Below are positions 11,385 through 57,340 of a stretch of DNA of 64,000 bases, piece by piece. Below the pieces are notes generated by a model. It was not told where the DNA came from and did not search any database. It saw only the letters and a list, made by a program, of their open reading frames with translations. The stretch spans positions 1 to 64,000 of the forward strand of contig DAIPXZ010000001.1 of assembly GCA_036782995.1 (NCBI GenBank). The letters run 5' to 3'. Position 1 is the first letter of the stretch; every line of letters begins with the position of its first letter. The position numbers and the translations under genes are program-made. This DNA comes from Bacillota bacterium. Its GTDB lineage: Bacteria > Bacillota > Clostridia > Saccharofermentanales > Saccharofermentanaceae.

Positions 11385-11518
11385 GTCCTTCACCTCGTTC
11401 TTTTCGCACTTCACAGCTATGAAAATGCAAGTGCTTCTATTCGTAAAATCCCGAAAATCGGGCATTTACCACCAGTGTGAACCATCTCACGTATTATACG
11501 AGCATATGGTTTCGATTG

Positions 11519-12691: not shown

Positions 12692-12701
12692 AACTGTATC
12701 C

Positions 12702-13619: not shown

Positions 13620-13622
13620 GAA

Positions 13623-15455: not shown

Positions 15456-15492
15456 AAGTCTTCTCTCCAGTGTATGAAATGCGTATTGACGC

Positions 15493-34537: not shown

Positions 34538-35722
34538 TTATGCGTTAATGCGTTTCTGCTTTGTGATAACCAGAGATAATGTGAAGAGGACTACAGCGAA
34601 TCCAAGCTGAATGCCGATGCATAGGATAATTTTTGATAGAGCATCACCGGAGAGGCTCGTAGCTTCTTTTACTAGGTTAATGGCACGTACATACCAATAC
34701 ACAGGCATGAAACTCGCTATGGTTTTGACCGAAGTTGCTAAGTATGTCTGATCAACGAAAACACCACTTATAAAGCAGAGGCCGAGGGAAGCAGCGTTTG
34801 ACACAAAGGTCATAAGGTTCTCATTACGAATTAATGCACTGATAAGCAAACCGAGTGAGAGGCAAACAATATAGAATACCAATGCATTGATGATCAACAT
34901 CCAAATACGAGGATTACTCATGTCGTCAAACATTGAGCTGGCACATATCGCGATTAATCCGAGGAAGATAAGGCCCAAGAAGGTCAGGCTGCCGACGAAA
35001 ATAAGGAAAGTCATCTTCGCGTTCTTGATGGGAGCGCAACGGATACGAGCTGCAGTCATTTGCGAGCGGAAAGCTTTGAAGATGGTATAGGTTCCGAGGA
35101 TGCAAATGCCGAGTGCAGCATAGGCAAAGAACGTAAAATGTCGAGATGCGTTTTCAAACGAAACACTTACATCAGATCCCTTCCAACTCGTTTCTACCGA
35201 TGATGAGATATCATTCTTTACATTTTCGGCGATGGCGCGGATTTGTTCATCACTTTGTACGCCATCTTCGCCCGTCGTTCCAATATAGATTCGGCTGATT
35301 TCGAAATACTTGTTGAGCTGCATTTCGATTTGCTGTTCGATGGAAGCCTGTTTGCTGCAGACACGTTTGATGGTTAATTCATGAGTATTACTTACAAAGT
35401 CGTCACCGAAGCCTTCCGGAATCACCAAAAGTAGATACTGTTCCCCCGAGCTTACAGCGTCCTCGGCAATTTCTTCGTCAGCATAATCCGTATTCACATT
35501 ATGAATCGTTTTCAAGTAGTCCAGAAAAGAGTCAGAGAATGCGTTACCCTCATCTTGATTGATGACTATAATGTCTTGTCTAATACTCATGAACTCTTTC
35601 GTCATGGTTTGTGATTCCTTTTGCGCCATAGAAAAGAAGAAAAACATAAACACTCCGATATATATGGCAAGAACCGGCCAATTACGAGCAATGACTTTGC
35701 AGACGTTTTTTATGATATGCAT
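34538..35722 (-). CDS. ABC-2 family transporter permease
   Basis: Topology is an N-terminal TM, a large extracytoplasmic loop, then 5 C-terminal TM helices. It sits in an operon with the ATPase. Confidence 0.7.
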   Translation of the reverse strand: MHIIKNVCKVIARNWPVLAIYIGVFMFFFFSMAQKESQTMTKEFMSIRQDIIVINQDEGNAFSDSFLDYLKTIHNVNTDYADEEIAEDAVSSGEQYLLLVIPEGFGDDFVSNTHELTIKRVCSKQASIEQQIEMQLNKYFEISRIYIGTTGEDGVQSDEQIRAIAENVKNDISSSVETSWKGSDVSVSFENASRHFTFFAYAALGICILGTYTIFKAFRSQMTAARIRCAPIKNAKMTFLIFVGSLTFLGLIFLGLIAICASSMFDDMSNPRIWMLIINALVFYIVCLSLGLLISALIRNENLMTFVSNAASLGLCFISGVFVDQTYLATSVKTIASFMPVYWYVRAINLVKEATSLSGDALSKIILCIGIQLGFAVVLFTLSLVITKQKRINA

Positions 35723-35733
35723 AATTATCCTCC

Positions 35734-36885
35734 TTAAATCGCAAGCGAGCGGTAGCTTTGCTTACGAAGAATCAATGTGACAACGAGAAGCATGGCAATA
35801 ATACCGGCACTGAGAATCCCTATGTTCATCCAGTAACGAGTCATATCCCTCACGTAGTAGAGTGAATAGAAAGCATCTGCAATCAAATTGCCTGGGTTAA
35901 TGTATTGCATAATCGGGGCCTTTTGAATGACTTTGGTTTTCACTGCAGAATCCATAAGACCCGCCAAATAACTGCAAATCATAGAGAAGGCGAGAACCAC
36001 TGCAATTTTTCCGCTTAGATTTGTTTTCAAAATCACTCCGATAAAGGCGCCGAGCAGGACACCGAAAACAACCGACAAAAACGAGGCCAGAATTAATAGT
36101 GCGATGTTGCTTCCAAAGCTCACACCAAGCCCAAATTTTAAATATGCAATCAAGAGAAGAATCGTGATGAATTGTACAAGAACCGTAGAGGAAAGTGTCA
36201 CAACGACGAGCTTCCATTTGTTTACAGGAGCCATGGATTGGCGCGCTGCCAAAGTCGATTGATTTGCCTGCAATATGGCTATATCGCGCAAGCCGGCAAA
36301 GGAAGCATAGAGGCAGGACATCGCAAGAAGTGCATAATAGAAAACCACCACAATATCGGCAATAGGGCCATCAGGAGCCTTCGAATAAGTATACTCCTGC
36401 GAAGTTAATTCGCTGATTTTGGCCAAGCTTGCAGGATTTGTTGTTGCGATGTTTGTAATCGTCTTGTTCATTTGGTTATACCAATCAAAGAATTCACGAA
36501 TCATCGTTTGCGATACTCCGGCTTTGGTAAACTGCAATGTGATTTCACCCTTTTCATTGAGCATCATCAAACCTTCAATTTCTTCGTTGGCGAGTGCTTT
36601 TTCTGCATCTTCTTGCGCGTCAAAATATGTGGTTTCAAACATCGCGTCTTCGTTGTCCTCTTTCGATTGTTCTTCGATTTGCGATTTGAGGGTCGTGTTC
36701 TGTTCGTACTGCGCATTGTTCACCACACCGAGCTTCGCGCGCTCAAATCCATTCGAAACATTCGAAAGCGCAAGCGAAAAGAATGTCGCGAGCAAAAACG
36801 GGAAAGCTATAGTCCAGAAAATGACACCCTTGTCGCGTAATTGCCCTTTGAGTCGGTAACCAAAAATACGGATTGCGGTATTCAT
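35734..36885 (-). CDS. ABC-2 family transporter permease
   Basis: Same architecture as its neighbour (paralogous permease pair). Confidence 0.7.
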   Translation of the reverse strand: MNTAIRIFGYRLKGQLRDKGVIFWTIAFPFLLATFFSLALSNVSNGFERAKLGVVNNAQYEQNTTLKSQIEEQSKEDNEDAMFETTYFDAQEDAEKALANEEIEGLMMLNEKGEITLQFTKAGVSQTMIREFFDWYNQMNKTITNIATTNPASLAKISELTSQEYTYSKAPDGPIADIVVVFYYALLAMSCLYASFAGLRDIAILQANQSTLAARQSMAPVNKWKLVVVTLSSTVLVQFITILLLIAYLKFGLGVSFGSNIALLILASFLSVVFGVLLGAFIGVILKTNLSGKIAVVLAFSMICSYLAGLMDSAVKTKVIQKAPIMQYINPGNLIADAFYSLYYVRDMTRYWMNIGILSAGIIAMLLVVTLILRKQSYRSLAI

Positions 36886-36900
36886 ATTATTGTCCTCCTC

Positions 36901-37839
36901 TTATGCGTCACGAAGTTCTTTTCCGGTTATCTCTAGGAACACGTCATTTAACGAAGGGCGCTCACCGAAAATGCGGCCCGTCTTTATATCCCGTTTGCCC
37001 AGCTCATCCAAAAGTTTCGACATCGCATTGGTTTCTTGCTTCGCTTTTACTACGAGCATGCCCTCTTTGATTTTTGCCGAAGAAACAAATTCCATCTCCT
37101 TGACCCACGGAAGAACATCCTCCGGATTCGAGAGAAGAAGCTCTATCGATATTTTTTCTCCGATTCTTACCATATCGATTAGCTCTTGCTTGGTGCCCTG
37201 CGCGATGATCTGACCGTTATCCATGATGGCAATTCGATTACAAAGGTGTTCTACTTCTTCCATGTAATGCGAAGTATAGATAATCGTCGCTCCACTCTTA
37301 TTTAAATTCTTAATTCCTTCTAGAATGTTATTTCGACTCTGCGGGTCAACGGCCACAGTTGGCTCATCAAAGAAGATAAGCTTCGGCTTATGGGCAATGC
37401 CGCATGCGATATTCAATCTGCGAAGAAGTCCACCGGAGAGCTTCTTCGGATAGAATTTGCGAAAATCATTGAGACCAACCATCTCAATTGCCTCGTCAAC
37501 CAGTGCTTTGCGTTCCTTATTGTCTTTGATATACAGTCCGCAGAAGAAATCGACATTTTCAAGCACGGTCAATTCATCAATAACGGCAACATTTTGCATC
37601 ACGACACCGATATCTCGTTTCGATGCATAGCTCGATGGAGTCATCGGTTTCCCAAAAATCTCAATTTCACCTTTATCGTACGCAAGAAGAGAAAGCATAC
37701 AATTAATCGCTGTCGTTTTTCCGGAGCCGTTCGGTCCTAATAGTCCGAATACTTCGCCTTCCTGAATGTCGAGGCTTAAGTGGTCCAATGCGATTAAGTC
37801 GCCATATCTTTTTACTAAATCTTTTACATGAATAATCAT
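36901..37839 (-). CDS. ABC transporter ATP-binding protein (ABC-2/DrrA-like)
   Basis: It has Walker A GLLGPNGSGKTT, signature LSGGLLRRL and Walker B IFFDEPT motifs. Confidence 0.9.
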   Translation of the reverse strand: MIIHVKDLVKRYGDLIALDHLSLDIQEGEVFGLLGPNGSGKTTAINCMLSLLAYDKGEIEIFGKPMTPSSYASKRDIGVVMQNVAVIDELTVLENVDFFCGLYIKDNKERKALVDEAIEMVGLNDFRKFYPKKLSGGLLRRLNIACGIAHKPKLIFFDEPTVAVDPQSRNNILEGIKNLNKSGATIIYTSHYMEEVEHLCNRIAIMDNGQIIAQGTKQELIDMVRIGEKISIELLLSNPEDVLPWVKEMEFVSSAKIKEGMLVVKAKQETNAMSKLLDELGKRDIKTGRIFGERPSLNDVFLEITGKELRDA

Positions 37840-38093
37840 AATGTTGCCCTGCCCTTCCTTTTTCTATGGTGTCATTCTACCGAATGACCGAATACGACAA
37901 TAGTGATATTCTTCCTCTTCGATTGTGAGAAATGTCATGGTTTTCATTTTTTCCGTTGCATGACACTTTCCACATAACGTGGCTCTAAACGCATAAAACA
38001 AGTTAGGTGCGAAGGATGGGCTTTGCTTTTTGGGAGAAAGGCCAGTAAACTATGGCGTGGAAAGAAAATGCTCGTTGGTAAGGAGTTTCGGAA

Positions 38094-38828
38094 ATGAAAC
38101 ATGGGAAATCCAGTCTTATACGATTAGTAAGCATCGTGGTCGCCACGTTGGTGCTGGTTACCACTATTCTTGCTATTGGGAGACATTGCATTGAATCATA
38201 TGCAAATCGTGTACCCGCCCTCACCGATGAAGCATTAGCAACAATTGATTTTTTAAAAGCCAAGAACCTCATGATTGTCGCACATCCGGATGACGAAACG
38301 CTCTGGGGTGGCGCACATCTCTATTCTCATGATTATTTGGTCGTTTGCCTGACTGGCGGACGAAACTCCGAGCGCGCAAAAGAATTTGCTTCAGTGATGG
38401 AGGCCGCAGATTGCCAATTCTTGCAATTGTCTTACCCCGATAAAGTATGCGGCTTACGAAGTAATTGGAAAGCCGTTAGGGAGCAAATGGAAGCGGATAT
38501 CCAGAAAATCGTTGAAGCCAATGATTGGGCACTCATCGTGACGCATAATGCGAAGGGTGAATATGGCCACCAGCACCACATCATGACCCACGATTCTGTA
38601 TGCAAAGTGTATTACGCGTCCGATTCGATGGCAGATCTTTATGTTTTCGGTGATTATTATTCGGCAAAAAAACTGGAAACGGCCGATAATCTGCCACAAG
38701 AAATCGATGATAGTCGTCTGTGTTTTAAGGAAGACCTTCTTTCCCATTACAGCTCGCAGGACAATACCGTGAAAAAGCTTTCGCATATGAATGTGTATGA
38801 GGATTGGACACTCATCGAGGACAGATAG
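38094..38828 (+). CDS. PIG-L/LmbE-family N-acetylglucosaminyl deacetylase with N-terminal membrane anchor
   Basis: After a TM helix (LIRLVSIVVATLVLVTTILAI) come the AHPDDE zinc-binding motif and a downstream HxxH (GHQHH). An AAGGAG RBS is present. Confidence 0.8.
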   Translation: MKHGKSSLIRLVSIVVATLVLVTTILAIGRHCIESYANRVPALTDEALATIDFLKAKNLMIVAHPDDETLWGGAHLYSHDYLVVCLTGGRNSERAKEFASVMEAADCQFLQLSYPDKVCGLRSNWKAVREQMEADIQKIVEANDWALIVTHNAKGEYGHQHHIMTHDSVCKVYYASDSMADLYVFGDYYSAKKLETADNLPQEIDDSRLCFKEDLLSHYSSQDNTVKKLSHMNVYEDWTLIEDR

Positions 38829-38831
38829 TTT

Positions 38832-41426
38832 ATGATAAATAACCGTGTTTTACACAAGAAAGACTACTTCTATATACTCATCATCGAATTGATTTTATGT
38901 ATGTTCCTTTTGACGTTGGCATGTCTGGGATACAAATTTGGCTCAACCATAGATTGGAATAACCAGCATTGGGCTATCCCCGATTATTTCCGAATGCTTT
39001 TTTACGATACACACGACCTTTTTCCGGATTTCGCCGCAAATCTCGGCGCCGGGCAAAATATATACTATCTATCCTATTATGGACTTTTTAGTCCGATCAT
39101 TCTGGTATCGTTTCTGTTCCCCAATGTGCCGATGGTCTTGTATATAATCGTTGTTAGCATTCTCTCTCTTTACGTCGATGTTGCTTTATTCTACTATTGG
39201 GTCAAGCCAAAATTTGGAGCGGATAATGCGTTTCTAGTAACATTTCTCTTCATCTTTTCGACGTCCCTGATTTTTCACAGCCACCGACATATCATGTTCG
39301 TCAATTACATGCCGTTTTTGCTTCTCGCCCTCATCGGTGTAGAACGCTTTCGAGCAACAAAGAGTCGGGTGCTCCTGATTATTTCTTCCCTATGTATCAT
39401 TCTCTCGAGCTACTTTTTCTCTGTCGGCGCGCTTATCGCTATAGTGCTCTATTTTTGGTATCTCGAAATCCGGGAATCGGATCGTTTCATGACGAAAGAA
39501 ATGATAAAGAAGCTTCTTTCATTCCTGATTGCGCCGATTATTGCGATATTTATGGCTGGCATCCTATTGTTACCGACAGCGTTCGTCTTACTGAACGGTC
39601 GCGATCCGAGTGCCGGCGGCAGCACGACCGCATGGCTCCCCCTTCTTTTCAAACCAATTCTGGGAAATATCGTATATAACCCTTATTCAATCGGAACAAT
39701 GGGATTTGGCGTCATCGCTGTCATCATCGGTCTCCTTTCAAGGAAAAAGCACGTCTTTATGTTATCCGTATGCTTTTCACTCTTCTTCTGCTGTCCGATA
39801 TTCATTTACCTGTTGAACGGTACACTCTATCTCGATGCAAAAGTGTTGATTCCGTTTCTACCGATATTTATGTTGATTGTTGGTAACGCAATCGATAGCA
39901 TATTCCAAAAGAAAGTGTCACGTCTTTCTTTATTAATTGCCAGTCTCGCTTGCACTTGCTTATTCGGAACGTCCTGTCTTTTCGGCCAAGACATGAATTA
40001 TTACACCATCATCATGGTTTCTTTTCCAATCGATGTAATCATGATTCTCGCAGGTATTGCATTATATAACCGTATTGGAAAACGTCGGACACTCGTCATT
40101 CCATTGATTTCCTTTTGCTTGATTGCTTGTATATCCATCAATGCAAAAGAAAAATACGTACCAATGGTCTCGGAATATACTGATTATGATTCAACCATCA
40201 ATGATTATATCAATCAAACACTGAAAGACGATTCTTCTTTCTATCGCTTCGGCTCTATTATTAAGACACACGACACCGTAAATTTCGCCTATAACACCGA
40301 GATGTATCGTACGACCATCTATTCGTCGCTTCACAACCGTTATTTAAGCGACTTCTATTTCGATGAGCTCTATAACGAAAACCAATATCGGAATGCCGCC
40401 CTGATGACTGAATCACGTAATTATCTTTATAACATGTATATGGGGCAAAAATACTTGGTCGGGGTCGCAGGAAAGAAGATACCCGGGTACTCCGCCGTGA
40501 CAACTATTGGTTCGACAAGCCTTTTCATGACCAACTACGCCTTTCCTGTCGGATATGCCAGCGATAAAATCATGAGTGAAGCCGAGTTCAACACTCTAGA
40601 ATACCCTTATGACATCGAGGCATTGATGGAATACACCATTGTCGACACGCCCTATTTTGACAGCGGATTCTCATCGGAAATCACTGCAATGACACTGTCT
40701 TCGGTCCCGGAATTAGTCGAACAATTACCTGTTAAGAAGCTGTCAGAAGATGATTATGTTGTCTCATCTGAAACAAGTATCCGCTTTAATTATGACTTGC
40801 CGGAGCCGTTGACTCAAAGCGTCGTGCTCCTTCGTTTCAACGTAAACAACGTCATCAACGAAGGAAAATCACCGACCGTCAAGATTTCCATCAATGGCAC
40901 CACCAACAAATTAACAAACGCCGACGGAAAATATTTCAACGGAAACAACAGCTTCGAGTACGTCTTTATTGCCGGTAAAACACCTATGAAGAACTTCCGA
41001 ATTCGCGTATCCGAAGGTGCCTACCAAATTTCCGATATTCAAGTTTATGTCATGCCACTTGCAAATATTCGGGAAATATCAAACGACCTGGATGCCTATA
41101 ACATCGACCGCGAGACCACACAAGGCAACATTTATTCCGGCACGATTGATGTTACGAAGGATGGATATTTCGTCATGTCTGTCCCCTATGACGAGGGATT
41201 CGATATCATCATTGACGGTCAATCCGTCCCTGTCGAAAGAGTCGATAAAGATTTCATCGGCGCAAAAATCGAGGCAGGACACCACACCATACGTATCGAA
41301 TTCCATGCGCCTCTCAAACGGGAAGGCACCATCCTTTCCGCCATCGGGACGTCCATGTTTCTCGTAGTGATTGGATGTGAAATTGCTCGCTCCCTACGTC
41401 GGGAACGAGCAATCAAAAAGAAATAA
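38832..41426 (+). CDS. YfhO-family polytopic membrane glycosyltransferase (GT-C-like) with large C-terminal extracytoplasmic domain
   Basis: 864 aa. The N-terminal ~480 aa has >12 TM helices with YfhO-like features, followed by a ~380-aa soluble domain. The start is 4 nt after the PIG-L stop. Confidence 0.8.
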   Translation: MINNRVLHKKDYFYILIIELILCMFLLTLACLGYKFGSTIDWNNQHWAIPDYFRMLFYDTHDLFPDFAANLGAGQNIYYLSYYGLFSPIILVSFLFPNVPMVLYIIVVSILSLYVDVALFYYWVKPKFGADNAFLVTFLFIFSTSLIFHSHRHIMFVNYMPFLLLALIGVERFRATKSRVLLIISSLCIILSSYFFSVGALIAIVLYFWYLEIRESDRFMTKEMIKKLLSFLIAPIIAIFMAGILLLPTAFVLLNGRDPSAGGSTTAWLPLLFKPILGNIVYNPYSIGTMGFGVIAVIIGLLSRKKHVFMLSVCFSLFFCCPIFIYLLNGTLYLDAKVLIPFLPIFMLIVGNAIDSIFQKKVSRLSLLIASLACTCLFGTSCLFGQDMNYYTIIMVSFPIDVIMILAGIALYNRIGKRRTLVIPLISFCLIACISINAKEKYVPMVSEYTDYDSTINDYINQTLKDDSSFYRFGSIIKTHDTVNFAYNTEMYRTTIYSSLHNRYLSDFYFDELYNENQYRNAALMTESRNYLYNMYMGQKYLVGVAGKKIPGYSAVTTIGSTSLFMTNYAFPVGYASDKIMSEAEFNTLEYPYDIEALMEYTIVDTPYFDSGFSSEITAMTLSSVPELVEQLPVKKLSEDDYVVSSETSIRFNYDLPEPLTQSVVLLRFNVNNVINEGKSPTVKISINGTTNKLTNADGKYFNGNNSFEYVFIAGKTPMKNFRIRVSEGAYQISDIQVYVMPLANIREISNDLDAYNIDRETTQGNIYSGTIDVTKDGYFVMSVPYDEGFDIIIDGQSVPVERVDKDFIGAKIEAGHHTIRIEFHAPLKREGTILSAIGTSMFLVVIGCEIARSLRRERAIKKK

Positions 41427-41450
41427 AACCAAATTTTTGTTTTTTCAGAA

Positions 41451-42509
41451 TCAGGCAACCTGATGTACATATTCCTCACTGGTTGCGATGACCTCACAAT
41501 TGTTCACGTAATCCAATATCTCAATGCTAAAAGATATGGTTTCCAGATCTTCCTGTTCAATCCCGAGAGCTTCCAGACTGTCCGCCATGACAAACAAGTA
41601 CGTGTAGCCATTTGTACCACCCAAAATCGTTTGCGCGTAGACGCTAAAATCATCATTTCCGTTTATTTTGACACTGTCACAATATGTCATGAAAATATCA
41701 TCACTATCGTTCATGCAGTAAATTTCGATACAATATAGATCCTGACTCCATTCGCCTTCACCAACAATTACTGAGAATCCATTTTCATCGTAGATTGTAG
41801 TTCCAATGGCCGAAAAACTATAATCCTTATCATCATAACCATCTGTAATAACGGAAGCTGTCTCATTCCCAATCAAGCCGTATGAATACGCATCTAAGAC
41901 TTCGATATACAACAATACTTCTCCGACTGTATTAATACTTGTGATGTCATTATCCTCTATTGATAAGTAAACATAATCCTGTACGGTTTCACCCGCAGGA
42001 ACCGTAACGTTGGATTCGTTCGTCGTCATTATGCCGTTTGCTGCGACGCCTGCTATATCGAAGACGATATCAGTATCACTTTGATTCGTTACTTCATAAT
42101 CAAGAACATCCATCCCATATGCCGATTCTGCTGTTGTATAGGAAAGAGCCGTGGCTGTCACTCCATCTGCGTCATAAATCACTTGTTCTTCGATATTCAC
42201 AGGTGTGCGTGGTTCACGCATTACAAATTCATCATCTTCACGCGGAATCGATGTCGTCGGGTCATCCGTCTCTTCCGGTACTATTGATTTTTCCGGTGTT
42301 TCTGGTTCTGTTGGTTCTTGATTTCTGTTCTCTTCGGACTCTTCGTCCTCGTCGTCTTCGTCATCTTCCTCAGCGTTGTCACGATCACTGGTTTTCTCGT
42401 CAGAATCCTCATCCTTGGAATAACTATTCGATTTACAGGCAACACTCATTGCTGCAATCATGGATATGCAAATTACTACACATAATCCCTTTAAAAGATA
42501 CTTTTTCAT
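41451..42509 (-). CDS. lipoprotein with acidic linker, unknown function
   Basis: Signal peptide plus lipobox (MSVAC). A D/E-rich linker (EEDDEDDEDEESEE) precedes a ~250-aa beta-rich domain. Confidence 0.7.
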   Translation of the reverse strand: MKKYLLKGLCVVICISMIAAMSVACKSNSYSKDEDSDEKTSDRDNAEEDDEDDEDEESEENRNQEPTEPETPEKSIVPEETDDPTTSIPREDDEFVMREPRTPVNIEEQVIYDADGVTATALSYTTAESAYGMDVLDYEVTNQSDTDIVFDIAGVAANGIMTTNESNVTVPAGETVQDYVYLSIEDNDITSINTVGEVLLYIEVLDAYSYGLIGNETASVITDGYDDKDYSFSAIGTTIYDENGFSVIVGEGEWSQDLYCIEIYCMNDSDDIFMTYCDSVKINGNDDFSVYAQTILGGTNGYTYLFVMADSLEALGIEQEDLETISFSIEILDYVNNCEVIATSEEYVHQVA

Positions 42510-43912: not shown

Positions 43913-45094
43913 ATGTCTGTTTTGATTGATAAGGGCATGCTCGTCATATGTTGCGTCGCGGTTCTTTTCTCCAGCGACATAAATCCTTACTGCGTGATTT
44001 ATTTATTGATCGCATTTGCGCTTTCTTTAGCAGTTACATATATATCCTCGCGGACATTCACAGTTGCCGTATCTATTGCTTACGGCATTCTCTCTCTCTT
44101 CTTTCCGCCGCTTTGCTGTTTTTTCCCTCTATTCCTATATGATTTGATTGTCGTGAAATCGCCGTGGCCGAGTTTGCTTTTTCTTTTTTCGCTGGTCAAT
44201 GCAACTTGGTTAATAGACGACTTGTCTTTACTTCATTTATTCCTCGTGTGCGGATTATGTGGTGTGGCTGGTCTTTTGTCCGTTCGCACTACGGAGGCTC
44301 GCCGAAAAACCACAGAATTGAATTCTTTGCGTGATGGCCTCACATCCGAGCAACGAACGCTAAAAAAAGCGAATCACGAACTTATGGATAAGCAAGATTA
44401 CGAAGTGCATGTCGCCATATTAGGCGAGCGCAATCGTATTTCCCGTGAGTTACATGACAGTATCGGTCACGTGCTTACTCGTTCAATTCTCCAAGCCGGA
44501 GCACTCTCTGCTGTGGCAAACCGTCTTTCTCACGAAGAGAGTTCAGAAAAAGAGACCGCAAACAATACCGAAGAGCTTTCCGAGAAAGCCCAGAATGTGC
44601 AAGCCTTGCAGGATGGCATCACCGCCTTACAAGCATCTCTTTCAGACGGTATGACACAGATTCGAGAGAGCATACACAATTTACATGAGGACTCCATGGA
44701 TATGAAAACCGAGCTTGAAGCCGTCCTTCGTGGATTTACGCAATGTCCGGTCGAGCTCACTGTCGCCACAACGACTTTGCCGCCGAAAAATATTCGTTTC
44801 GCCATGATATCCATTGTTAAAGAATGCATGTCCAATGTAACCAAACATGCCCCCGACGCGACACAGGTCACAGTCACTTTACGTGAGCATCCGGTTATGT
44901 GGCAATTGATTATTGAAGATAATGGAGAAGCCGTACGCGGTAAAGATCTCCAATCGTTACTAATTTCGCAATCTGCCGGTATCGGAATCACGAGTATTCG
45001 TGCGCGTGTGGAAGAATTACATGGTCGTTCTGCCATCTCGACAGAAGACGGCTTCTGTCTTCACATCACTTTCCCCAAGGAGGACAACAAATGA
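43913..45094 (+). CDS. sensor histidine kinase, HisKA_3 type (LiaS/DesK-like) with ~6-TM sensing domain
   Basis: It has an AAAGGAGGA RBS, N-terminal polytopic membrane region, the H-box LGERNRISRELHDSIGHVLT, and a HATPase_c domain (GIGITSI). Confidence 0.85.
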   Translation: MSVLIDKGMLVICCVAVLFSSDINPYCVIYLLIAFALSLAVTYISSRTFTVAVSIAYGILSLFFPPLCCFFPLFLYDLIVVKSPWPSLLFLFSLVNATWLIDDLSLLHLFLVCGLCGVAGLLSVRTTEARRKTTELNSLRDGLTSEQRTLKKANHELMDKQDYEVHVAILGERNRISRELHDSIGHVLTRSILQAGALSAVANRLSHEESSEKETANNTEELSEKAQNVQALQDGITALQASLSDGMTQIRESIHNLHEDSMDMKTELEAVLRGFTQCPVELTVATTTLPPKNIRFAMISIVKECMSNVTKHAPDATQVTVTLREHPVMWQLIIEDNGEAVRGKDLQSLLISQSAGIGITSIRARVEELHGRSAISTEDGFCLHITFPKEDNK

Positions 45095-45774
45095 AAACAC
45101 GCTTAATCATTATCGATGATGATCGTTTTATCGTATCCGCACTTACGACCATACTCTCCGCCGACACGGCCATCGAGGTCGTTGCAACCGGCAATGATGG
45201 AAGCGAGGCGTTAACGCTCTGGCGGGCTCATCAACCAGACGTATTACTCATGGATATCCGTATGCCGGGAACAGATGGATTACAAGGCGCAGCCGAGGTG
45301 ATTACAGCATTTCCGGAAGCGAAAATTCTTTTCCTCACGACCTTCTCAGACGATGAATATATCGTTAAAGCATTACGCATCGGTGCACGTGGCTATTTAC
45401 TCAAAGAGAAGTTCGAATCCATTGCCCCCGCGATTTCCGCGGTGCGTGCGGGACAAAGCGTTTTCGGCGAAGAGATTATCTCCCGTATCACCTTCCCTGT
45501 CACCTCACTTTACGATGATCAGCCGGAAAAAGGCGGTGACGTCGCCACAGTTGGATCAAAATCCATTCCGACTGATGACCCTCTTTATGCATGTCTCACG
45601 CCGAGAGAAGTGAACATTTTGGAAGCAATCAGCGCCGGATTAAGCAATAAAGAGATTGCCGAGCAACTGTTCTTAAGTGAAGGAACCGTACGTAACAGTA
45701 TCACATCCATGCTCGACAAACTCGAGCTCAAAAGCCGAACGCAGCTTGCCATTTACTATCTGAAACGACAATAA
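45091..45774 (+). CDS. NarL/LuxR-family response regulator
   Basis: The receiver domain is IIDDDRFIVSAL...LLMDIRMPGTDG. The C-terminal LuxR HTH is LTPREVNILEAISAGLSNKEIAEQLFLSEGTVRNSI. The start overlaps the HK stop (ATGA). Confidence 0.9.
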   Translation: MKTRLIIIDDDRFIVSALTTILSADTAIEVVATGNDGSEALTLWRAHQPDVLLMDIRMPGTDGLQGAAEVITAFPEAKILFLTTFSDDEYIVKALRIGARGYLLKEKFESIAPAISAVRAGQSVFGEEIISRITFPVTSLYDDQPEKGGDVATVGSKSIPTDDPLYACLTPREVNILEAISAGLSNKEIAEQLFLSEGTVRNSITSMLDKLELKSRTQLAIYYLKRQ

Positions 45775-49067: not shown

Positions 49068-50534
49068 TTACAACACCGGCTTTTCGAGTGCATTCTCCAA
49101 TGCATCGATGATGATCTCGATGGTTTTTACGCGGGCATAAAGCTTATCATTGCCTTCAATAATATGCCAGGGCGCATATTCCGTCGATGTTTTCTGTAGC
49201 ATATCATTGACGGCCTCTTCGTATGCATCCCATTTCTCGCGGTTACGCCAATCTTCGTCTGTGATCTTCCATTGCTTTTCAGGTGTTTCTTGGCGTTCGT
49301 TGAAACGAGCAAGCTGGACGTCTTTATCAATTTGAAGCCAAAATTTTATCACGATTGTGCCTTCCGATGCCAACTGATATTCAAATTCATTCATTTCACG
49401 GTAGGCGCGTTTCCATTCCTTTTGATCGCAAAAGCCTTCTATGCGTTCTACCATAACACGCCCGTACCACGTACGGTCAAAAAGTGCTATATGCCCGGTT
49501 TTCGGCATTTTCTCCCAGAAACGCCATAAATAATGGCGATTCTTTTCTGGTGGGGTCGGCGATGCAACAGGATTTACTTCATATCCGCGTGCATCGAGTG
49601 CTTGCGTCACGCGTTTTATGGCACCACCCTTCCCTGCTGCGTCCCATCCTTCAAAAAGCAAGACGACGGGGATGTGGCGGGCGTAGATGTGATTATGAAG
49701 CTCACGCAGACGTTTCTGATCCTTTTTCAGACGCTCCTCGTAGTCTTCGCGGGGTAGCGCAAGAGATAGGTCAACCTCGTGTAGAAGCGGCATAGATATC
49801 GGCTTCGGGAGTTTCGGTACATATTTTGCAACCGCTTTCTTGTCGATTCCGTTGTGCAAACGATCGGAGATGGCGTCGATTAAATAGCGAAGTGCGTAGA
49901 ATTCACTGATAAGTGGTTTTTTCGCTTCGATAACATGCCATGGAGCAAAAGGCGAATCCGTCTTTTCCATTATTTCTTGGTAAGCCGCCTTAACTTCGCA
50001 ATAGTTCTTCGCTTCCCATGCATCATGCTCTGAAACCCGCCATGCGGTTGCTTGGTCAGCGAGCAGGCGATTGAGTCTGCATTTCTGTTCATCTTCATCG
50101 ATATTCAGGAAGATTTTCACTAAAAGATATCCGTTTTCAGTCAATGACCGCTCAAATTGCTTAACAAATTCGATACGACGCTTATATGTATCTGACGTGA
50201 TGCTTCGTTCCAAATTTGAAGTAGCTAGAATTGACGGCCATCCGCTATCTAGGAACGTGAACTTTCCTTGTTCAGGAATGGTTCGAAAATAGCGATAAAG
50301 AAAGTGTCTTCTCGTTTCTTCCGGACTCGGACGATCCATAGAACAGACGCGATAAAAGCGCGGATCGATACAAGTAATTAAGCGATTAATCAATGAACCC
50401 TTGCCCGATGCGGCAAAGCCTTCCACGAGAACAAATACTGAAATCCCCGCCTTTTTGATTTCCTGTTGTAGAGTAAGGAGTTCTCCTTGCATTTCTGAAA
50501 TTTCTGCCTTCATCTGCTTTTTTTCTTCACGCAT
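49068..50534 (-). CDS. two-domain polyphosphate kinase 2 (class II PPK2 / polyphosphate:AMP phosphotransferase-like)
   Basis: It has two tandem PPK2 domains, each with a Walker-A-like motif (EGFAASGKGS and EGWDAAGKGG). The start was set at MREEKKQ (ATG at 50534; RBS AAGGAGGT 8 nt upstream), which overlaps the upstream gene's stop by 8 nt. Confidence 0.85.
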   Translation of the reverse strand: MREEKKQMKAEISEMQGELLTLQQEIKKAGISVFVLVEGFAASGKGSLINRLITCIDPRFYRVCSMDRPSPEETRRHFLYRYFRTIPEQGKFTFLDSGWPSILATSNLERSITSDTYKRRIEFVKQFERSLTENGYLLVKIFLNIDEDEQKCRLNRLLADQATAWRVSEHDAWEAKNYCEVKAAYQEIMEKTDSPFAPWHVIEAKKPLISEFYALRYLIDAISDRLHNGIDKKAVAKYVPKLPKPISMPLLHEVDLSLALPREDYEERLKKDQKRLRELHNHIYARHIPVVLLFEGWDAAGKGGAIKRVTQALDARGYEVNPVASPTPPEKNRHYLWRFWEKMPKTGHIALFDRTWYGRVMVERIEGFCDQKEWKRAYREMNEFEYQLASEGTIVIKFWLQIDKDVQLARFNERQETPEKQWKITDEDWRNREKWDAYEEAVNDMLQKTSTEYAPWHIIEGNDKLYARVKTIEIIIDALENALEKPVL

Positions 50535-51678
50535 ACGATTGTACCTCCTTGTACTTCTCATCGACTCGATTCATTAATTCGAGTTCATCAAGGATTTCCC
50601 CTTGATATGGGTACGTATTCCTCATGCTCTCGAATTGTTCACGTATGTTTTGGGCGTCATTCGTATTATTGTCCTCGAGTAACGCCTTCGCATATTGATA
50701 GCGCAAAACGGTAGGATTTTCCTTCATCTTCTGAATGAAGTCCATTGTTGTTTTTGATAAAAAAGAGTTCCGTTCATCTTTGGGCTGTTCGGTAAGCAAT
50801 GAAAGGTAGGTTAACTCCATATCGATAAAGGCACCTATTATTCCGCTTCTTGGTATCTCCGTATGATTATGAAGCCACTTTAGTTTTTCATAAGCTTCAT
50901 CTAATCGACCATTGATGATGTAATAGCAACAACTGTTTACGTATTGCGTGGTAATTATTGCTGTCGTCATCTCTTTTTCCGTAGGAAAAAAGTAATTGGC
51001 TTCGTCTATATCTTTCATGCGAGCATCTTCAGCGTATTCCGCAAGTGTAATCATCTGTGTGTAGAATACACGAATCATCAATGGGTTACGTTTACAGGCC
51101 AAGATATTCGCTCCGTCGTTATTCAACATTTTGCCGGAAAACGGAATGCCATTTATTACGGCAGGAATCAACGCCATTGCCGCAGCAGTGATAAAAAACG
51201 CACGGCTAATCGGTGCAATCGGCAAGAGACAGAGTCCGCCAAATATACCGGCACACAACATGTTCATGAGCACTCCGCCGAGTTGATAAAGATTAATCGG
51301 ATTTTTTCCGTTCTCTTGATATAGCGGTGGTTTCATTAAGCATTGACCCGCCGTTCCGGTAAGCTTATATTTCTTGATCGCGAGCTTTCCATTCTTCTTT
51401 ATCCAAACAGTATTGTATACTCGGAAGCTTATAAAAGAATATCCGGAAATCAAGCCCGCAAACAAGTGTCCTAGTTCATGGAGAACAAGTTGAATATTAT
51501 ACAAAACAATGCTGACCATACAAAAGACAAGCGTAACCAAGAAACCATGTGTTCCAATAGAATTCGGATATGCCCCCTTTATGATCGCATTGATTATCAT
51601 CATCGAGCCAAAGTAGATGATTACCAATATTGTGCATATAAGAAAACAATTCACTGCATTGATTTTCTTTGATTCCAT
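50527..51678 (-). CDS. membrane-embedded HExxH zincin-like protein (DUF3267/S2P-like N-terminal half) with cytoplasmic helical C-terminal domain
   Basis: HELGH lies inside a predicted TM helix (LVLHELGHLFAGLISGY). There are 4-5 TM helices in the first ~190 aa, then a ~190-aa soluble helical domain. An AAGGAG RBS is present. Confidence 0.55.
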   Translation of the reverse strand: MESKKINAVNCFLICTILVIIYFGSMMIINAIIKGAYPNSIGTHGFLVTLVFCMVSIVLYNIQLVLHELGHLFAGLISGYSFISFRVYNTVWIKKNGKLAIKKYKLTGTAGQCLMKPPLYQENGKNPINLYQLGGVLMNMLCAGIFGGLCLLPIAPISRAFFITAAAMALIPAVINGIPFSGKMLNNDGANILACKRNPLMIRVFYTQMITLAEYAEDARMKDIDEANYFFPTEKEMTTAIITTQYVNSCCYYIINGRLDEAYEKLKWLHNHTEIPRSGIIGAFIDMELTYLSLLTEQPKDERNSFLSKTTMDFIQKMKENPTVLRYQYAKALLEDNNTNDAQNIREQFESMRNTYPYQGEILDELELMNRVDEKYKEVQSYA

Positions 51679-51714
51679 AAATACTCCTTATTGCACAAGT
51701 CTCGAACTTGTAGC

Positions 51715-53187
51715 TTATTCGGAAGACGCATCGGAGGTCGTTTTTTTGAACGGGGAGGGTCCTTCACTGTCAAATTCGGGAATATCCTCCAATCCGATTT
51801 CCAACGCAACGTCCATCGCCGATTTTGCCGGAGCTTTAGGGATATTGCTTCCAAGACTACGATCCGTTGCCGGGAAGAAGCCGGAGCCTCTTCCGAGCTG
51901 TTGACTACGTGCTTGATCAATGGATAGATAGATTTCCGAATGCTTTTCGGGGAGAGGTACAGGGGCACTCGGAATGTTGACTTGCCTTTCCAAGGCAAAT
52001 TTATCACTGTCAACACCATGATACGCTTCTTCAACATTTTTTTGATTTACAACAACCTTGGCTGGCGCAACACGTACATTTCTTTCCATGCGAATCAGAA
52101 CCTTGTCCACAGCATTTTCATTCATCGCTATATCGATTAATGCAGACGAGTTCGGAATGTCGAGGTATGCACGGCATTCCGAAGGACGATAGATGGGGCG
52201 TGAAGACGCAATCCTTCCGTTAACCGCATTCATCAGCCAATGGAATGGCTTTCCCTTCACAGTAGTTTTTATCTGCCAATAAGGGAAGTAGGTTAAGATG
52301 CCAAGGCTTTCCTCGTATTTCGACTGGTCGACATAGGACACAACCGCCGATTCTTTTTCTTCCTCACTAACCCAGATGCCGCGCACCCACAGCTTGATAT
52401 GGGCAATTAAATCATCCATGATTTCCTGACCCGACCGGTTAGGCATGACGAAAATAGCGTTATTCTTATCGACCGAATCAAAGTCTTTGCTCATCGAAAA
52501 GGAATATGGGCCAATATCATCAAACGAATCGTTACTGATATAGTCCGAAGCAGGGATTGGGATGTCGTTAAAGCGGAATTGTCCTCCGACATTTCGATCG
52601 ACATAATAACCATCTGTCGAAGACATCGGACGCATAATAGCCGTGTTCTCGACTCTCTTTTGGTTATCATTTTTGTACGTTGTAGGTACTTTTTCAGCCA
52701 AATTCTTGGTGACAATCGCACTGGTAAATGCTTCATAATCAAAGATATAAACAGGCAAGTACGTTTTCACCATCATTTCAGCGAGCTTGGTGTATTTTCC
52801 GGAAAGAAAGAACTTTTCCTTCATGGATTTTTCAAAAGCTTCCTTCGCTTCGTTCGCATCGACGTAAAATGGTACGATTTGTTGAGCCTTGGGAAAAGGG
52901 TGTTGTTTATTGTCGACCTTCGGCACTCTTTCTTTTCCGCAAACAATACAGGTCGAACGGGCGGAAGATAAATCCGTTTCCGAAAACATTATCGTCTTAC
53001 ATTGAGGACACTCATAAGAATAATAATCTCGCAACGCGCTGTATTCCGGGAAATAAAAACCACCGTCTACCTTTTCCACTTGATTCTCTGGCAAAAGCGG
53101 CGTATGACAAAACACGCATTCGTATTTATCGTGCGTGTTTGTAATAACATTAGCATGACATTTGGGGCATGCAAACGCAATATCCAT
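51715..53187 (-). CDS. cytoplasmic tandem-zinc-ribbon protein, paralog A (unknown family)
   Basis: 490 aa. The N-terminal sequence MDIAFACPKCHANV...YECVFCHT...YECPQCKT...CIVCG has four CxxC pairs (two zinc ribbons). A ~350-aa domain follows that is conserved with the 1337-aa neighbour, then the C-terminal motif DIPEFDSEGPSPFKK. An AGGAGTG RBS is present. No TM helix or signal peptide. Confidence 0.7.
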   Translation of the reverse strand: MDIAFACPKCHANVITNTHDKYECVFCHTPLLPENQVEKVDGGFYFPEYSALRDYYSYECPQCKTIMFSETDLSSARSTCIVCGKERVPKVDNKQHPFPKAQQIVPFYVDANEAKEAFEKSMKEKFFLSGKYTKLAEMMVKTYLPVYIFDYEAFTSAIVTKNLAEKVPTTYKNDNQKRVENTAIMRPMSSTDGYYVDRNVGGQFRFNDIPIPASDYISNDSFDDIGPYSFSMSKDFDSVDKNNAIFVMPNRSGQEIMDDLIAHIKLWVRGIWVSEEEKESAVVSYVDQSKYEESLGILTYFPYWQIKTTVKGKPFHWLMNAVNGRIASSRPIYRPSECRAYLDIPNSSALIDIAMNENAVDKVLIRMERNVRVAPAKVVVNQKNVEEAYHGVDSDKFALERQVNIPSAPVPLPEKHSEIYLSIDQARSQQLGRGSGFFPATDRSLGSNIPKAPAKSAMDVALEIGLEDIPEFDSEGPSPFKKTTSDASSE

Positions 53188-53256
53188 AACAATTCACTCC
53201 TATCATTCAGACGGTAAGGATGAAAAGTCTTCGTTTGAGAATGCTCGAAAGAATGA

Positions 53257-56200
53257 TTATCTTTCCCGTCTTATCGGTTTCTTGGCAAATGGGCTTGGTC
53301 CATTCGGATCAAACTTCGGAATATCGCTTAACGAACGACGAGCCGCCGCTTCCTCTTCAACGATTCCTTTGCGAATTGGATCCATTCCGCCATATGCTAG
53401 CGATGGGATCGGTCGTTCGCCGCCGTATCTTGGTAATCCTTCATCCTCAGGCGGTCGTGTACCCGTGGCGACCGGTTGTGCTGTTTCTTGCAAAGTTGTT
53501 CCTGTCGGATGTTCTGTCAAATTGCTCTCTTCTACTGTTCTGCTACCAGGACGCAGCATCACCGCAGCCATGTTTGTATTCTCCACATTGATGGTCGATT
53601 CTTTTACCGAAAATGCCGGCAGAACTTCTTCGTCCTGTTCGCGATTGCTTTCTTCGACGTCAGCCGTATGAATGGTCATCGGTACCGAGCGTGTATACTC
53701 AACCGGTTCTTCAACGGGCTGTTCCGCCTTTGGAGCAAATACGGGCGCATCCTCACTTGATGCTTTGAAAGCCGCTTGGACATTGGCCTGACGTGCCGCT
53801 TCTTCTAATGCGCGTCTCTCGCGATATGTGCGTGGACGATCGCTCGAGAATGTAATTGGAGAAGATTCATCCTCGGTGCCACGAACAGAAGTATTTACTG
53901 TTTCATCGAGCGTCGTATTCGGACGTAATGCTGAACCCGGACGTGTTGCGGCCGGTTCATTTGCGGAGGACGAAGAAGTCGATGGCTGTTTATCTTCGTC
54001 AATCGTTAACTCTTCCTTCTGATGTAATGGCATTTCTCCACCGCGGCTTGTTGCTGAATGATCGGCAGCAGCAAGAACACTATTGTTTCTCGGTTTTTCA
54101 ACATTAATTACGATATCTTGTGGCTTTGCAAAACGAGGTTTCGTATCTTCTGGTTCAGGCAATCCCGTTGATGGTGATGCCCATGTCGGAATCGGTCGAT
54201 CACTACGAATTGAACGCTCCCAAATCGGTACGGACTTCGAAGAATTCTCTTCTTGGCTTCTATGTCCACGCATGGCAGGACCACTAGTTGCTTGTGCCGC
54301 CGTCGTTGACGCTTGCGTTTCTTCCTGTGATACGCTTCTGCGCGATGCAAAAGGAGAAATCGAATCTTCCGGTCTTCCCCATGTCGGAGGCGGCGTAATT
54401 GCAGATGAAAGAGGACTACGGCTTACGGAAGACGTATCCGTTTTTGGAGTCGAAGGTGCATTGGTTGCTACCGTCGGACGGCTCGTCGTGGAATCACTAC
54501 GCGTTGACGTTCCAGGACGAGAAGCTGCCCCCGGTCGCGTCGCAGCAACGGATTCACGTGATGTCGTCGGTTCTGATGCCGAAGTCGCTTGCACTGGAGC
54601 TTTATGTTGTAATGTCGAATCTTGTGATGCCGGCACAGACATATTCGGGCGTGGCGGACGCTTTATCTGTCCGTTTTGACCAACAGTTGTAGCGGACGCA
54701 CTTGTTTTTTTTGCCCAGTCGGGTGTCTCTCCCGCTGGCATTTCACCCCAAATTGGTTTGCGTGGCATATGAATTGAATCATCTTCTGATGGTGTTGAAA
54801 CAGAACGAGCCATTTGCGCAAGCGGAGATGGTTCACGCGGAGCAAGAGGCTTCGAAACAGGCTTCGGTGTTGGCAAGACATCTTCGTCTTTCTCAACCAT
54901 AGGAAGTGGCATGTGCTTTTCTTCTTCGATAATCGGAGCCTTCTTCTCCATGAAAGAAAGAGAAAGGTGTTGCTCTTCCTTTTCAAACGTATCAGCGCCG
55001 ACAGGTGTCACTTCTTCCTTCATCGGGAGTGGTTGTGATGTTGTTTTCGGTGTCGTGGCTTTCTTGGCCTGCAAAACGATATCATCCGCTTTCTCAACCG
55101 CCGATTTAGTCTTACGTGACTTATCGGGTACGATATCATCCGCAGATTCAACGATGCCCTTCTTGGTAGTCGACTTTAATGAATCATCGGTATCATTGTC
55201 TGCACGTGATACAGTAGTCGTCGCGTTTTTCTCTTCCGTACTCGGTTGTTCCATCGCGGCTTCACGACGCTTCAGCTCTCTAAGTGCGCTGAGTGGCAAG
55301 GAATTGATTGTCTCGGCATCCAAATCAGCAAGAGTCAAGCCATCCAGATTCATCAATGGAGATGCTATTTGCGTAGACTGTACATCCGACATATTCGAAA
55401 TATATGCGGACTCCCACGCTGGATGGTTTTGTTCCATAGTCTTCGACGAGGAAAGAGTCGATGCCGGAGCTTGAACGGCTTCGATTGGTTGCTCTTCTTC
55501 ACCATTCACCTTCGCCTTCATGCTGGATACTTTCTTTTCCGGAACATGTGCACCAAATGCGTTCACGCTTGCGTCTTGCGGGCGATCCCATACCGGTACC
55601 TGTGTTTCTTTTTTCTCGATGGCAGGCTTCTTTGTTCGAACGGTACGATTGCTGTTTGGAACAGCGACCTCCGTCGGCTTCGAGTTCTTCGCCCACGCCG
55701 GTGCTTCCACTGCAGCTTTCATCTCGCCCGGATTTTCCTTGGCTGCTGCTTTAATGGCAGCTGGTCGAGTAATCGGTTCCAGTTTCTTTTTCTGAGGCAT
55801 CTTCGTTAAATCGCTAATATTGGTCACAATCGGAATATCAAGAAGTGGCGCACCCTCTGGGCGATTTGCCGCTTCAGCACGACGTTTTTCCATTGCCTCA
55901 GCGCGTTTCTTCGCCTCTTCATCTGCCTTAATGTCTGCCTCCGTTGCGGTGTGAACCATCAACTGCGCATCAAAATCATCCGGCTTCTTTGGTTTTCTTG
56001 TTTTCGGCTTCTCAAAGAAGGAGTAATCAAGAATTTCGTGCGCTGGATTATATAGATCGAACTCAAAGTGTGTGTCCTTCAATGCCGTACAGCGGTCCAT
56101 ATTGGCATATTCGTGATATCCGGTCTTGTCATTTTGTGATGCGACCTTCGCCATCGGAATATTTGCCTCGACGACACCGTTTTGAGCATTCATGGCATAG

Positions 56201-57183: not shown

Positions 57184-57340
57184 GTTGGGTTTATCCCTCC
57201 TGTCGCGAAAGCGTGATCGCCTTACTGAGGCCTTCGCTAACGATATCTCTACTAGAGCAATTATAGTCAAACTATAATATAAAGGGTGAACGGATTATTG
57301 TCAATTATTTTTTGTTATTTACGAGTGCTGTAAAGTGTCA

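Follow-up and report, generated by a model that had tools for sequence, protein, structure and literature searches.

A 64,000-nucleotide stretch of DNA from a Bacillota bacterium of the family Saccharofermentanaceae (contig DAIPXZ010000001.1, positions 1 to 64,000; hereafter the window) encodes a membrane-anchored deacetylase of the PIG-L/LmbE family and, directly downstream, a YfhO-family glycosyltransferase of the GT-C class. The two genes form one operon, their linkage recurs in related genomes, in some of them together with GT2 and GtrA genes, and the deacetylase belongs to a clade whose catalytic domain is predicted to face outward. We infer a CsbB/GtcA/YfhO-type glycosylation system with a built-in amine-unmasking step, in which the PIG-L enzyme would de-N-acetylate N-acetylglucosamine (GlcNAc) that YfhO has placed on a teichoic-acid-like polymer. 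The probability of this reading is put at roughly 0.45.

A PIG-L deacetylase and a YfhO glycosyltransferase encoded in one operon

The two genes, their translation signals and the protein segments that bear on function are located as follows.

38080–38085, plus strand: Shine-Dalgarno sequence AAGGAG of the PIG-L gene, 8 nucleotides (nt) ahead of its ATG, read from the sequence
38094–38828, plus strand: PIG-L gene, an open reading frame (ORF) of 244 amino acids (aa) with an ATG start; membrane-anchored PIG-L/LmbE (CE14) putative de-N-acetylase
38124–38180, plus strand: N-terminal transmembrane (TM) anchor, residues 11–29, from hydropathy; predicted N-in/C-out
38280–38297, plus strand: AHPDDE motif, residues 63–68; the MshB zinc ligands H13 and D16 correspond in the alignment to H64 and D67, and MshB D15 to D66
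38556–38579, plus strand: GEYGHQHH motif, residues 155–162 (GHQHH, 158–162); Y157, H159 and H162 align with MshB Y142, H144 and H147
38817–38821, plus strand: Shine-Dalgarno sequence GAGGA of the YfhO gene, within the 3′ end of the PIG-L gene and 10 nt ahead of the YfhO ATG
38832–41426, plus strand: YfhO gene, an ORF of 864 aa with an ATG start; YfhO-family GT-C glycosyltransferase
38940–38969, plus strand: YfhO loop motif G37-S-x-x-D41-W42-x-x-Q45-H46, in the first extracytoplasmic loop, after TM1; candidate catalytic Asp loop of GT-C enzymes
40230–41315, plus strand: β-rich extracytoplasmic C-terminal domain of YfhO, residues ~467–828, from the secondary structure of the AlphaFold2 (AF2) model, followed by the last TM helix (829–863)

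The stop codon of the PIG-L gene (TAG, 38826–38828) is separated from the ATG at 38832 by three spacer bases, 'ttt', which places the YfhO start 4 nt past the last base of the stop codon. The ORF lengths and profile scores of both genes exclude chance, and the two constitute one operon. The first-pass annotation of this DNA had described the pair at these positions, with the 4-nt junction, the AHPDDE and GHQHH motifs and the membrane anchor, and all of this was borne out by the ORFs, the sequence, Pfam and the structures.

The 244-aa protein matches the Pfam family PIG-L (PF02585) over residues 59–170 (E = 4.7e-11; 43.7 bits, cut-off 28.2). Its AF2 model is of high confidence (predicted local distance difference test score, pLDDT, 93.8), begins with a helix at residues 4–38 and shows an LmbE-type α/β fold; Foldseek retrieved MshB (2e-8), BC1534 (3e-7) and Dbv21 (4e-6), to which the protein is 16–18% identical. 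H64, D66, D67, Y157, H159 and H162 are invariant in the family alignment, fused homologs included, and match the active site of MshB, in which we take H13, D16 and H147 to be metal ligands, D15 the general base, and Y142 and H144 transition-state residues. The catalytic residue set is thus kept, and the PIG-L protein is predicted to be catalytically competent. To our knowledge, every characterised PIG-L-family enzyme cleaves the N-acyl group of a 2-acylamino-glucoside (glucosaminide).

The only NCBIfam matches of the protein are to MshB (26.6 bits against a cut-off of 224) and Mca (25.7 against 277), and the BshB model gave no match. With scores some 200 bits under the equivalog cut-offs, 16–18% identity, a membrane anchor and an outward domain, a thiol enzyme of the BshB/MshB type was ruled out; clustering with such enzymes had been named in the first-pass annotation as an argument against its reading. 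Homology to the streptococcal deacetylase PplD, first suspected on the view that PplD is a PIG-L enzyme, was likewise dropped: neither phmmer nor the family profile matched PplD, which belongs to CE4 (PMC8807736). Pfam detected no CE4 domain in the window protein, the fold of which is of the LmbE type instead of the CE4 (β/α) barrel.

Database searches retrieved 666 relatives of the PIG-L protein. The best non-self match is only 51% identical, and none of the relatives bears a name more specific than 'PIG-L family deacetylase'. In a profile search of 1.84 billion cluster representatives (50% identity), 253 clusters scored below 1e-30 and 987 below 1e-10. An uncharacterised 'LmbE-like deacetylase' is also listed in the gene table of a WalRK expression study, as Clostridioides difficile gene 27900 between cwp2 and cwp66 (PMC9210968).

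The 864-aa protein matches YfhO (PF09586) over essentially the full length of the profile (positions 7–835 of 835; E = 4.6e-60, 204 bits). Its AF2 model (pLDDT 85.4) contains about 14 TM helices, a β-rich ectodomain and a terminal TM helix, and Foldseek aligned it with the GT-C enzymes AftD, AglB, EmbB, ArnT, PglB and STT3; the ectodomain gave partial matches to carbohydrate-binding modules. The loop motif G37-S-x-x-D41-W42-x-x-Q45-H46 varies little or not at all among 36 locus-encoded and 31 database homologs, with D41 and W42 invariant throughout, suggesting a catalytic role for the D41 loop. The YfhO C-terminus shows a weak likeness to PgfM1 and PgfM2 in NCBIfam (1e-10 and 2e-9; 40 bits against a cut-off of 1400). 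The characterised YfhO enzymes of Bacillus subtilis, Staphylococcus aureus and Listeria monocytogenes all move GlcNAc from its undecaprenyl-phosphate-linked form (C55-P-GlcNAc) to lipoteichoic acid (LTA) or wall teichoic acid (WTA) (PMC8035078).

The deacetylase domain is predicted to face outward

A single N-terminal hydrophobic helix was present in 120 of the 120 homologs retrieved. The 15 residues that precede this helix contain a mean of 3.5 Lys plus Arg (net charge +3.1) and the 15 residues that follow it 2.0 (net +0.2; Wilcoxon p = 4e-18), a charge bias that indicates an N-in/C-out orientation. A median of 32 residues separates the TM helix from the HPDD motif.

Fused members of the family point in the same direction. 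Longer proteins make up about half of the top 150 representatives; in these, a C-terminal PIG-L domain follows signal peptides and extracellular modules. In 68 such members, the modules ahead of the domain include Big_2 (44), choline-binding repeats (11), ricin-type lectin (8), CWB2 (3) and fn3 (3). One 750-aa protein (P0253) consists of a cytoplasmic GT2, a single TM helix (447–465), wall-binding-type repeats and an ecto-PIG-L domain. At two loci (L068 and L070) the PIG-L domain is fused to the polytopic DUF6056 family, in clusters with TagF-like and ABC-transporter genes of the teichoic-acid type. The outgroup of the tree is made up of PIG-L proteins fused to GT4 or to a kinase, which are clearly cytoplasmic. 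The charge bias around the anchor, the fusions to secreted modules and the outgroup position of the cytoplasmic fusions together place the clade of the window protein outside the cytoplasm, and its PIG-L domain is therefore predicted to face outward.

DUF6056 proteins were found fused to or adjoining ecto-PIG-L domains at L065 (7353–9068), L066 (290–1759), L068 (8462–10579) and L070 (8462–10576 and 17669–19648), with TagF-like genes at L065, L068 and L070. They share a conserved 'PYS-x-DDW-x-WGS' loop and may represent a further GT-C-like transferase in partnership with this clade of deacetylases. The DUF6056 profile gave no match in the window, and the sole paper found in a literature search on DUF6056 concerns antiphage defence and not DUF6056 function.

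The pairing is conserved across several lineages

A scan of species-representative genomes yielded 80 loci, each of which was subjected to ORF and clustering analysis. A YfhO gene lies within 400 bp of the PIG-L gene at 37 loci (26 downstream and co-directional, 7 divergent, 4 upstream and co-directional) and within 3 kb at two more. Fourteen loci end at a contig edge, and 15 of the 27 full-flank loci without YfhO have fused or distant architectures. When only the single-anchor PIG-L architecture with full flanks is considered, YfhO is nearby in 39 cases and lacking in 12. Members linked to YfhO are spread over at least four separate clades of a neighbour-joining tree built from the PIG-L domains.

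The association was also examined from the YfhO side. All six sampled homologs of the window YfhO, 35–39% identical to it, have a PIG-L gene directly upstream, with stop and start codons that overlap by 14, 4, 11 or 10 nt or are separated by 17 or 166 nt; five of the six pairs thus overlap or have a gap of at most 17 nt. A single YfhO cluster (Ruminococcus sp.) comprises 8022 database sequences. Conservation of the pair extends over many gut Firmicutes; its carriers include Ruminococcus (R. callidus, R. flavefaciens and others), Eubacterium ruminantium, Oscillospiraceae, Lachnospiraceae, Marvinbryantia and Faecalimonas, as well as Holdemanella, Absicoccus and Erysipelatoclostridium among the Erysipelotrichales. 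The suggestion in the first-pass annotation that the pairing could be sought in related genomes thus led to a conserved arrangement (37 of the 80 species genomes and all six YfhO-side homologs) that is not peculiar to one strain.

Several neighbours recur around the pair. At the Ruminococcus-type loci L081, L082, L084 and L085 (also L015, L020 and L033), a galactose-1-phosphate uridylyltransferase gene (PF01087; product of ~500–535 aa) lies directly upstream of the pair and in the same orientation, and leuA is divergent; the uridylyltransferase neighbour may reflect lineage synteny or a link to UDP-sugar supply. Two-component systems, ABC-2 transporters or both flank the pair in the window and at L004, L031, L036, L038, L042, L047, L050, L086 and L087, and in Erysipelotrichales an OmpR-type regulator and a kinase follow the PIG-L gene directly on the same strand. 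These neighbours hint at envelope-stress control of the pair, with regulator families that vary by lineage.

GT2 and GtrA partners accompany the pair in related loci

Ten loci, of the Erysipelotrichales type and some others, contain all four components, GT2, GtrA, YfhO and PIG-L (L025, L028, L031, L036, L038, L042, L045, L047, L050 and L058). The gene order is GT2, an ORF of 133–140 aa, YfhO and PIG-L; genes for a response regulator and a histidine kinase often come next. The GT2 proteins match Pfam Glycos_transf_2, end in C-terminal TM helices and score 323 bits to PgfS (cut-off 500) and 162 bits to ArnC in NCBIfam, which assigns them to the polyprenyl-phosphate sugar synthase class. The 133–140-aa ORF belongs to the GtrA family. 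At L014 and L029 YfhO carries a fused GtrA domain at its C-terminal end; such YfhO proteins of ~980–994 aa (L014, 1865–4813; L029, 6521–9505; P0197; P0217) combine the GT-C enzyme and the flippase in one chain.

Since these loci hold GT2, GtrA, YfhO and PIG-L together, the deacetylase is an added fourth component of a GT-A/GtrA/GT-C system and no replacement for the GT2. The first-pass annotation had viewed the deacetylase as standing in place of the CsbB-type GT2, a view that has to be given up. Its question of where the cognate GT2 resides received a divided answer: one lies beside the pair in the ten related loci, and none adjoins it in the window. Unlinked GT2 genes are known from characterised systems, with Lmo2550 versus Lmo1079 in L. 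monocytogenes and SAOUHSC_00713 versus SAOUHSC_01213 in S. aureus (PMC8035078), and the cognate GT2 of the window genome is probably likewise unlinked from YfhO.

Candidates within the window were considered and rejected. A profile built from the GT2 genes of the related loci has its sole window match at 11519–12691, and the GtrA profile its sole match at 6052–8217; both belong to a separate minus-strand operon with NDP-sugar-modifying enzymes (NDP, nucleoside diphosphate) and were not accepted as partners of the pair. This eight-gene operon (6052–17103, minus strand) encodes an HMGL-like enzyme, a thiamine-pyrophosphate-dependent acetolactate-synthase-like enzyme, an NAD epimerase, a membrane GT2 of the PgfS/ArnC class (11519–12691), a nucleotidyltransferase, an NDP-hexose 4,6-dehydratase, a DegT-type pyridoxal-phosphate enzyme and a 721-aa polytopic protein with an N-terminal GtrA domain, the other ~570 residues of which match no family. 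It resembles a second surface glycosylation system that uses a lipid carrier, for a rare and possibly branched or dideoxy sugar.

A proposed pathway and its alternatives

In the pathway that we favour, a CsbB/PgfS-type polyprenyl-phosphate GT2, presumably encoded elsewhere in the genome, would make C55-P-GlcNAc in the cytoplasm, and a GtrA-type flippase would bring it to the outer leaflet. YfhO would then transfer GlcNAc to a membrane-proximal envelope polymer, most likely LTA or WTA, after which the PIG-L/LmbE-fold zinc amidase, held at the outer face by its one N-terminal anchor, would strip the N-acetyl group from the transferred sugar to leave cationic glucosamine (GlcN). GlcNAc is the probable sugar because characterised YfhO enzymes transfer it and PIG-L-family enzymes act on 2-acylamino-glucosides. 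Action after transfer is favoured because fusions of the same domain to wall-binding and lectin modules recur, and such modules would keep the domain within the wall and away from the lipid donor. A teichoic-acid-like acceptor would accord with the acceptors of the characterised YfhO enzymes; the LTA of Clostridium innocuum may bear GlcN/GlcNAc substituents, a point given no weight here. Further, an effect on surface charge or on resistance to cationic peptides is suggested by the likeness to PplD.

Several observations weigh against this pathway. About a quarter of the standalone PIG-L members have neither a nearby YfhO nor consistent neighbours, and the deacetylase can therefore work without an adjacent YfhO; no alternative GT-C partner was found beside these orphan genes, the neighbours of which are unrelated housekeeping genes (glycogen phosphorylase, PolC, P-type ATPase). 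The pair in the window stands by itself, with no GT2 or GtrA gene adjoining. The residue equivalent to MshB D146 is H161, an invariant His in this clade. The short tether between the anchor and the catalytic domain fits lipid-linked donors as well as polymers, and a protein acceptor, as used by PgfM1, is also conceivable.

The main rival places deacetylation at the level of the donor: the outward-facing PIG-L enzyme would turn flipped C55-P-GlcNAc into C55-P-GlcN in the outer leaflet, and this YfhO subfamily would be a GlcN transferase, making the system a Gram-positive counterpart of ArnC/ArnD/ArnT with the deacylation outside. In its favour, the coupling is near-obligate in this YfhO subfamily (6 of 6 sampled), the gene overlap points to production of both proteins in stoichiometric amounts and perhaps to a complex, the 32-residue tether keeps the PIG-L domain near the membrane, and the domain is also fused to polytopic DUF6056; the enzyme that gave the PIG-L family its name is generally known to act on lipid-linked GlcNAc. 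Pools of undecaprenyl-phosphate-linked GlcNAc are, moreover, physiologically sensitive (PMC11898649). However, many paralogs with a domain ~40–50% identical carry wall-binding or lectin modules that would keep them in the wall and off lipid donors, standalone PIG-L members occur without a nearby YfhO, and characterised YfhO enzymes use C55-P-GlcNAc itself (PMC8035078). We regard a donor-level route as unlikely while giving it serious weight; its full form, in which conversion to C55-P-GlcN by the outward PIG-L enzyme is joined to a YfhO subfamily dedicated to glucosamine, appears slightly more doubtful.

The two enzymes could also have independent substrates, the deacetylase acting on peptidoglycan GlcNAc, a wall-polysaccharide backbone or its linkage unit, and YfhO decorating another target, with co-regulation as their only link. 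Extracytoplasmic deacetylation of GlcNAc in peptidoglycan and linkage units by the CE4 enzymes PplD and PgdA is well established (PMC8807736), orphan and wall-targeted PIG-L members exist, and the two-component systems and ABC transporters that are common neighbours hint at envelope-stress regulons. Mere co-regulation, however, accounts poorly for an adjacency kept across three arrangements and at least four clades, for the overlap of stop and start codons, for PIG-L genes inside GT2-GtrA-YfhO clusters and for fusions of the PIG-L domain to polytopic DUF6056 and to GT2, which together exceed the usual products of co-regulation. Independent substrates are accordingly considered decidedly unlikely.

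It is more improbable again that YfhO is a Pgf-like O-glycosyltransferase for surface proteins, with the deacetylase editing protein-bound N-acetylhexosamine. The weak likeness of the YfhO C-terminus to PgfM1 and PgfM2 (1e-10 and 2e-9) and the proximity of the related-loci GT2 to PgfS (323 bits) would fit this idea, but the scores are far under the equivalog cut-offs (40 versus 1400 bits and 323 versus 500 bits), neither an epimerase nor a second GT-C gene of the Pgf type occurs at the loci, TagF/TagGH-type teichoic acid clusters house related fused members, and the YfhO ectodomain resembles carbohydrate-binding modules.

Finally, a cytoplasmic role, as a BshB/MshB-like enzyme of low-molecular-weight thiols or as a cytoplasmic-face deacylase like PIG-L or ArnD, would be in line with MshB and BC1534 as nearest solved structures and MshB and Mca as sole NCBIfam matches, but merits next to no credence, the evidence weighing strongly against it: 26 bits against cut-offs of 224–277, 16–18% identity, a universal TM anchor with positive-inside bias, dozens of paralogs in which the domain follows signal peptides and secreted modules, and the GT4 and kinase fusions, clearly cytoplasmic, as the outgroup of the tree.

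Genomic surroundings of the pair in the window

Upstream of the pair and divergent from it lie the genes for an ABC-2 transporter (ATPase at 36901–37839 and two permeases; the region spans 34538–37839, minus strand), then an EAL/GGDEF protein and a cardiolipin-synthase-like phospholipase D. On the downstream side, a 352-aa ORF without annotation and the gene for a DUF4003 protein are convergent with the pair; a HisKA_3/LuxR two-component system (region 43913–45774, plus strand), a GT4 and a GH1 come after them. A promoter and terminator scan of 37600–41800 returned counts no higher than those in shuffled sequence, and an Rfam scan of the whole window gave no matches; no regulatory element can therefore be claimed. 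Farther downstream, at 50527–57270 on the minus strand, three large ORFs of 383, 490 and 1337 aa (the last with a TTG start) have no confident family assignment; the 1337-aa ORF has a borderline RNHCP match (24.1 bits, cut-off 24).

Novelty and implications

How GT2/GtrA/GT-C systems glycosylate teichoic acids and wall polysaccharides outside the cytoplasm has been studied extensively; none of the systems described contains a deacetylase. Full-text literature searches that paired YfhO, LmbE and PIG-L with deacetylase or (lipo)teichoic acid returned no description of the gene pair, deacetylases go unmentioned in a 2021 review of multi-component glycosylation systems (PMC8035078), and the extracellular deacetylation of GlcNAc by bacteria has been ascribed to CE4 enzymes (PMC8807736). 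The analysis thus brings to light an outward-facing PIG-L/LmbE (CE14) clade, as predicted from its sequences, that is tied to YfhO in Ruminococcus, Lachnospiraceae, Oscillospiraceae, Eubacterium and Erysipelotrichales.

The pair probably adds positively charged glucosamine to surface polymers. If deacetylation follows transfer, as we propose, free-amine glucosamine is predicted on the surface polymers of major gut commensals, a charge-modifying mechanism would exist besides D-alanylation, and a function would be provided for many proteins that are now labelled just 'PIG-L family deacetylase'. Were the donor-level route to hold instead, abundant gut Clostridia and Erysipelotrichia would possess an Arn-like lipid-carrier route to cationic teichoic-acid sugars, an alternative or complement to D-alanylation that would have consequences for immune recognition and for resistance to host cationic peptides. 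Several carriers of the pair are cultured species; cultivable ones include R. callidus (L003), R. flavefaciens (L017), E. ruminantium (L006), Absicoccus intestinalis (L047) and Holdemanella.

Comparison with known systems

The closest structural relatives of the deacetylase, MshB, BshB (BC1534), Mca and Dbv21, have the same fold and the same catalytic residues, with a His-Asp-His metal site, an Asp base, a Tyr and a His. They are soluble cytoplasmic enzymes of thiol or antibiotic biosynthesis, whereas the window protein is anchored and only 16–18% identical to them.

The eukaryotic PIG-A/PIG-L step of glycosylphosphatidylinositol (GPI) synthesis also employs an N-terminally anchored member of PF02585 that acts on GlcNAc, the sugar proposed here for the window protein, with a sequence likeness limited to the family motifs. 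Eukaryotic PIG-L acts on GlcNAc-phosphatidylinositol at the cytoplasmic face of the endoplasmic reticulum, in contrast to the extracytoplasmic placement predicted for the bacterial clade. The first-pass annotation had likened the pair to the GPI pathway; this analogy holds for the chemistry and fails for the location, GPI and Arn deacylases being generally known as cytoplasmic-face enzymes.

The Pgf system of Streptococcus mutans (PgfS, PgfM1, PgfE and PgfM2) likewise contains a YfhO-like GT-C and a PgfS-like GT2, and supplies the nearest NCBIfam models for the YfhO C-terminus and for the related-loci GT2, yet with scores far under the cut-offs. Pgf has an epimerase and a second GT-C, lacks a deacetylase and modifies proteins; the related loci have neither an epimerase nor a second GT-C.

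ArnC/ArnD/ArnT follow the same logic of a polyprenyl-phosphate GT2, an amine-unmasking deacylase and a GT-C enzyme that attaches a cationic sugar to an anionic polymer of the envelope. The likeness extends to individual components, the related-loci GT2 scoring 162 bits to ArnC and ArnT being a structural match of the YfhO model. Sugars and acceptors differ, and the window deacetylase is predicted to face outward; ArnD has a different fold and acts at the cytoplasmic face before flipping.

Streptococcal PplD has the same layout as the window deacetylase, an N-terminal TM helix followed by an extracellular zinc deacetylase domain, and deacetylates the linkage GlcNAc of a rhamnopolysaccharide, with reported protection against cationic antimicrobial proteins (PMC8807736). 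The proposed outcome for the pair is the same, GlcN and positive charge in a wall polymer. PplD is an analogue and not a homologue: it adopts the CE4 (β/α)7 barrel, in contrast to the Rossmann-like LmbE/PIG-L fold of the window protein, acts on a linkage unit, and has no reported GT-C pairing.

The system nearest to the pair is CsbB/GtcA/YfhO, which modifies LTA in B. subtilis and S. aureus and WTA in L. monocytogenes. The GT-C enzyme belongs to the same family by profile and fold, the related loci share the GT2 class and the GtrA flippase, and in S. aureus and L. monocytogenes the GT2 gene is likewise unlinked. The described systems work without a deacetylase (PMC8035078), whereas the YfhO subfamily of the window is nearly always accompanied by a PIG-L gene.

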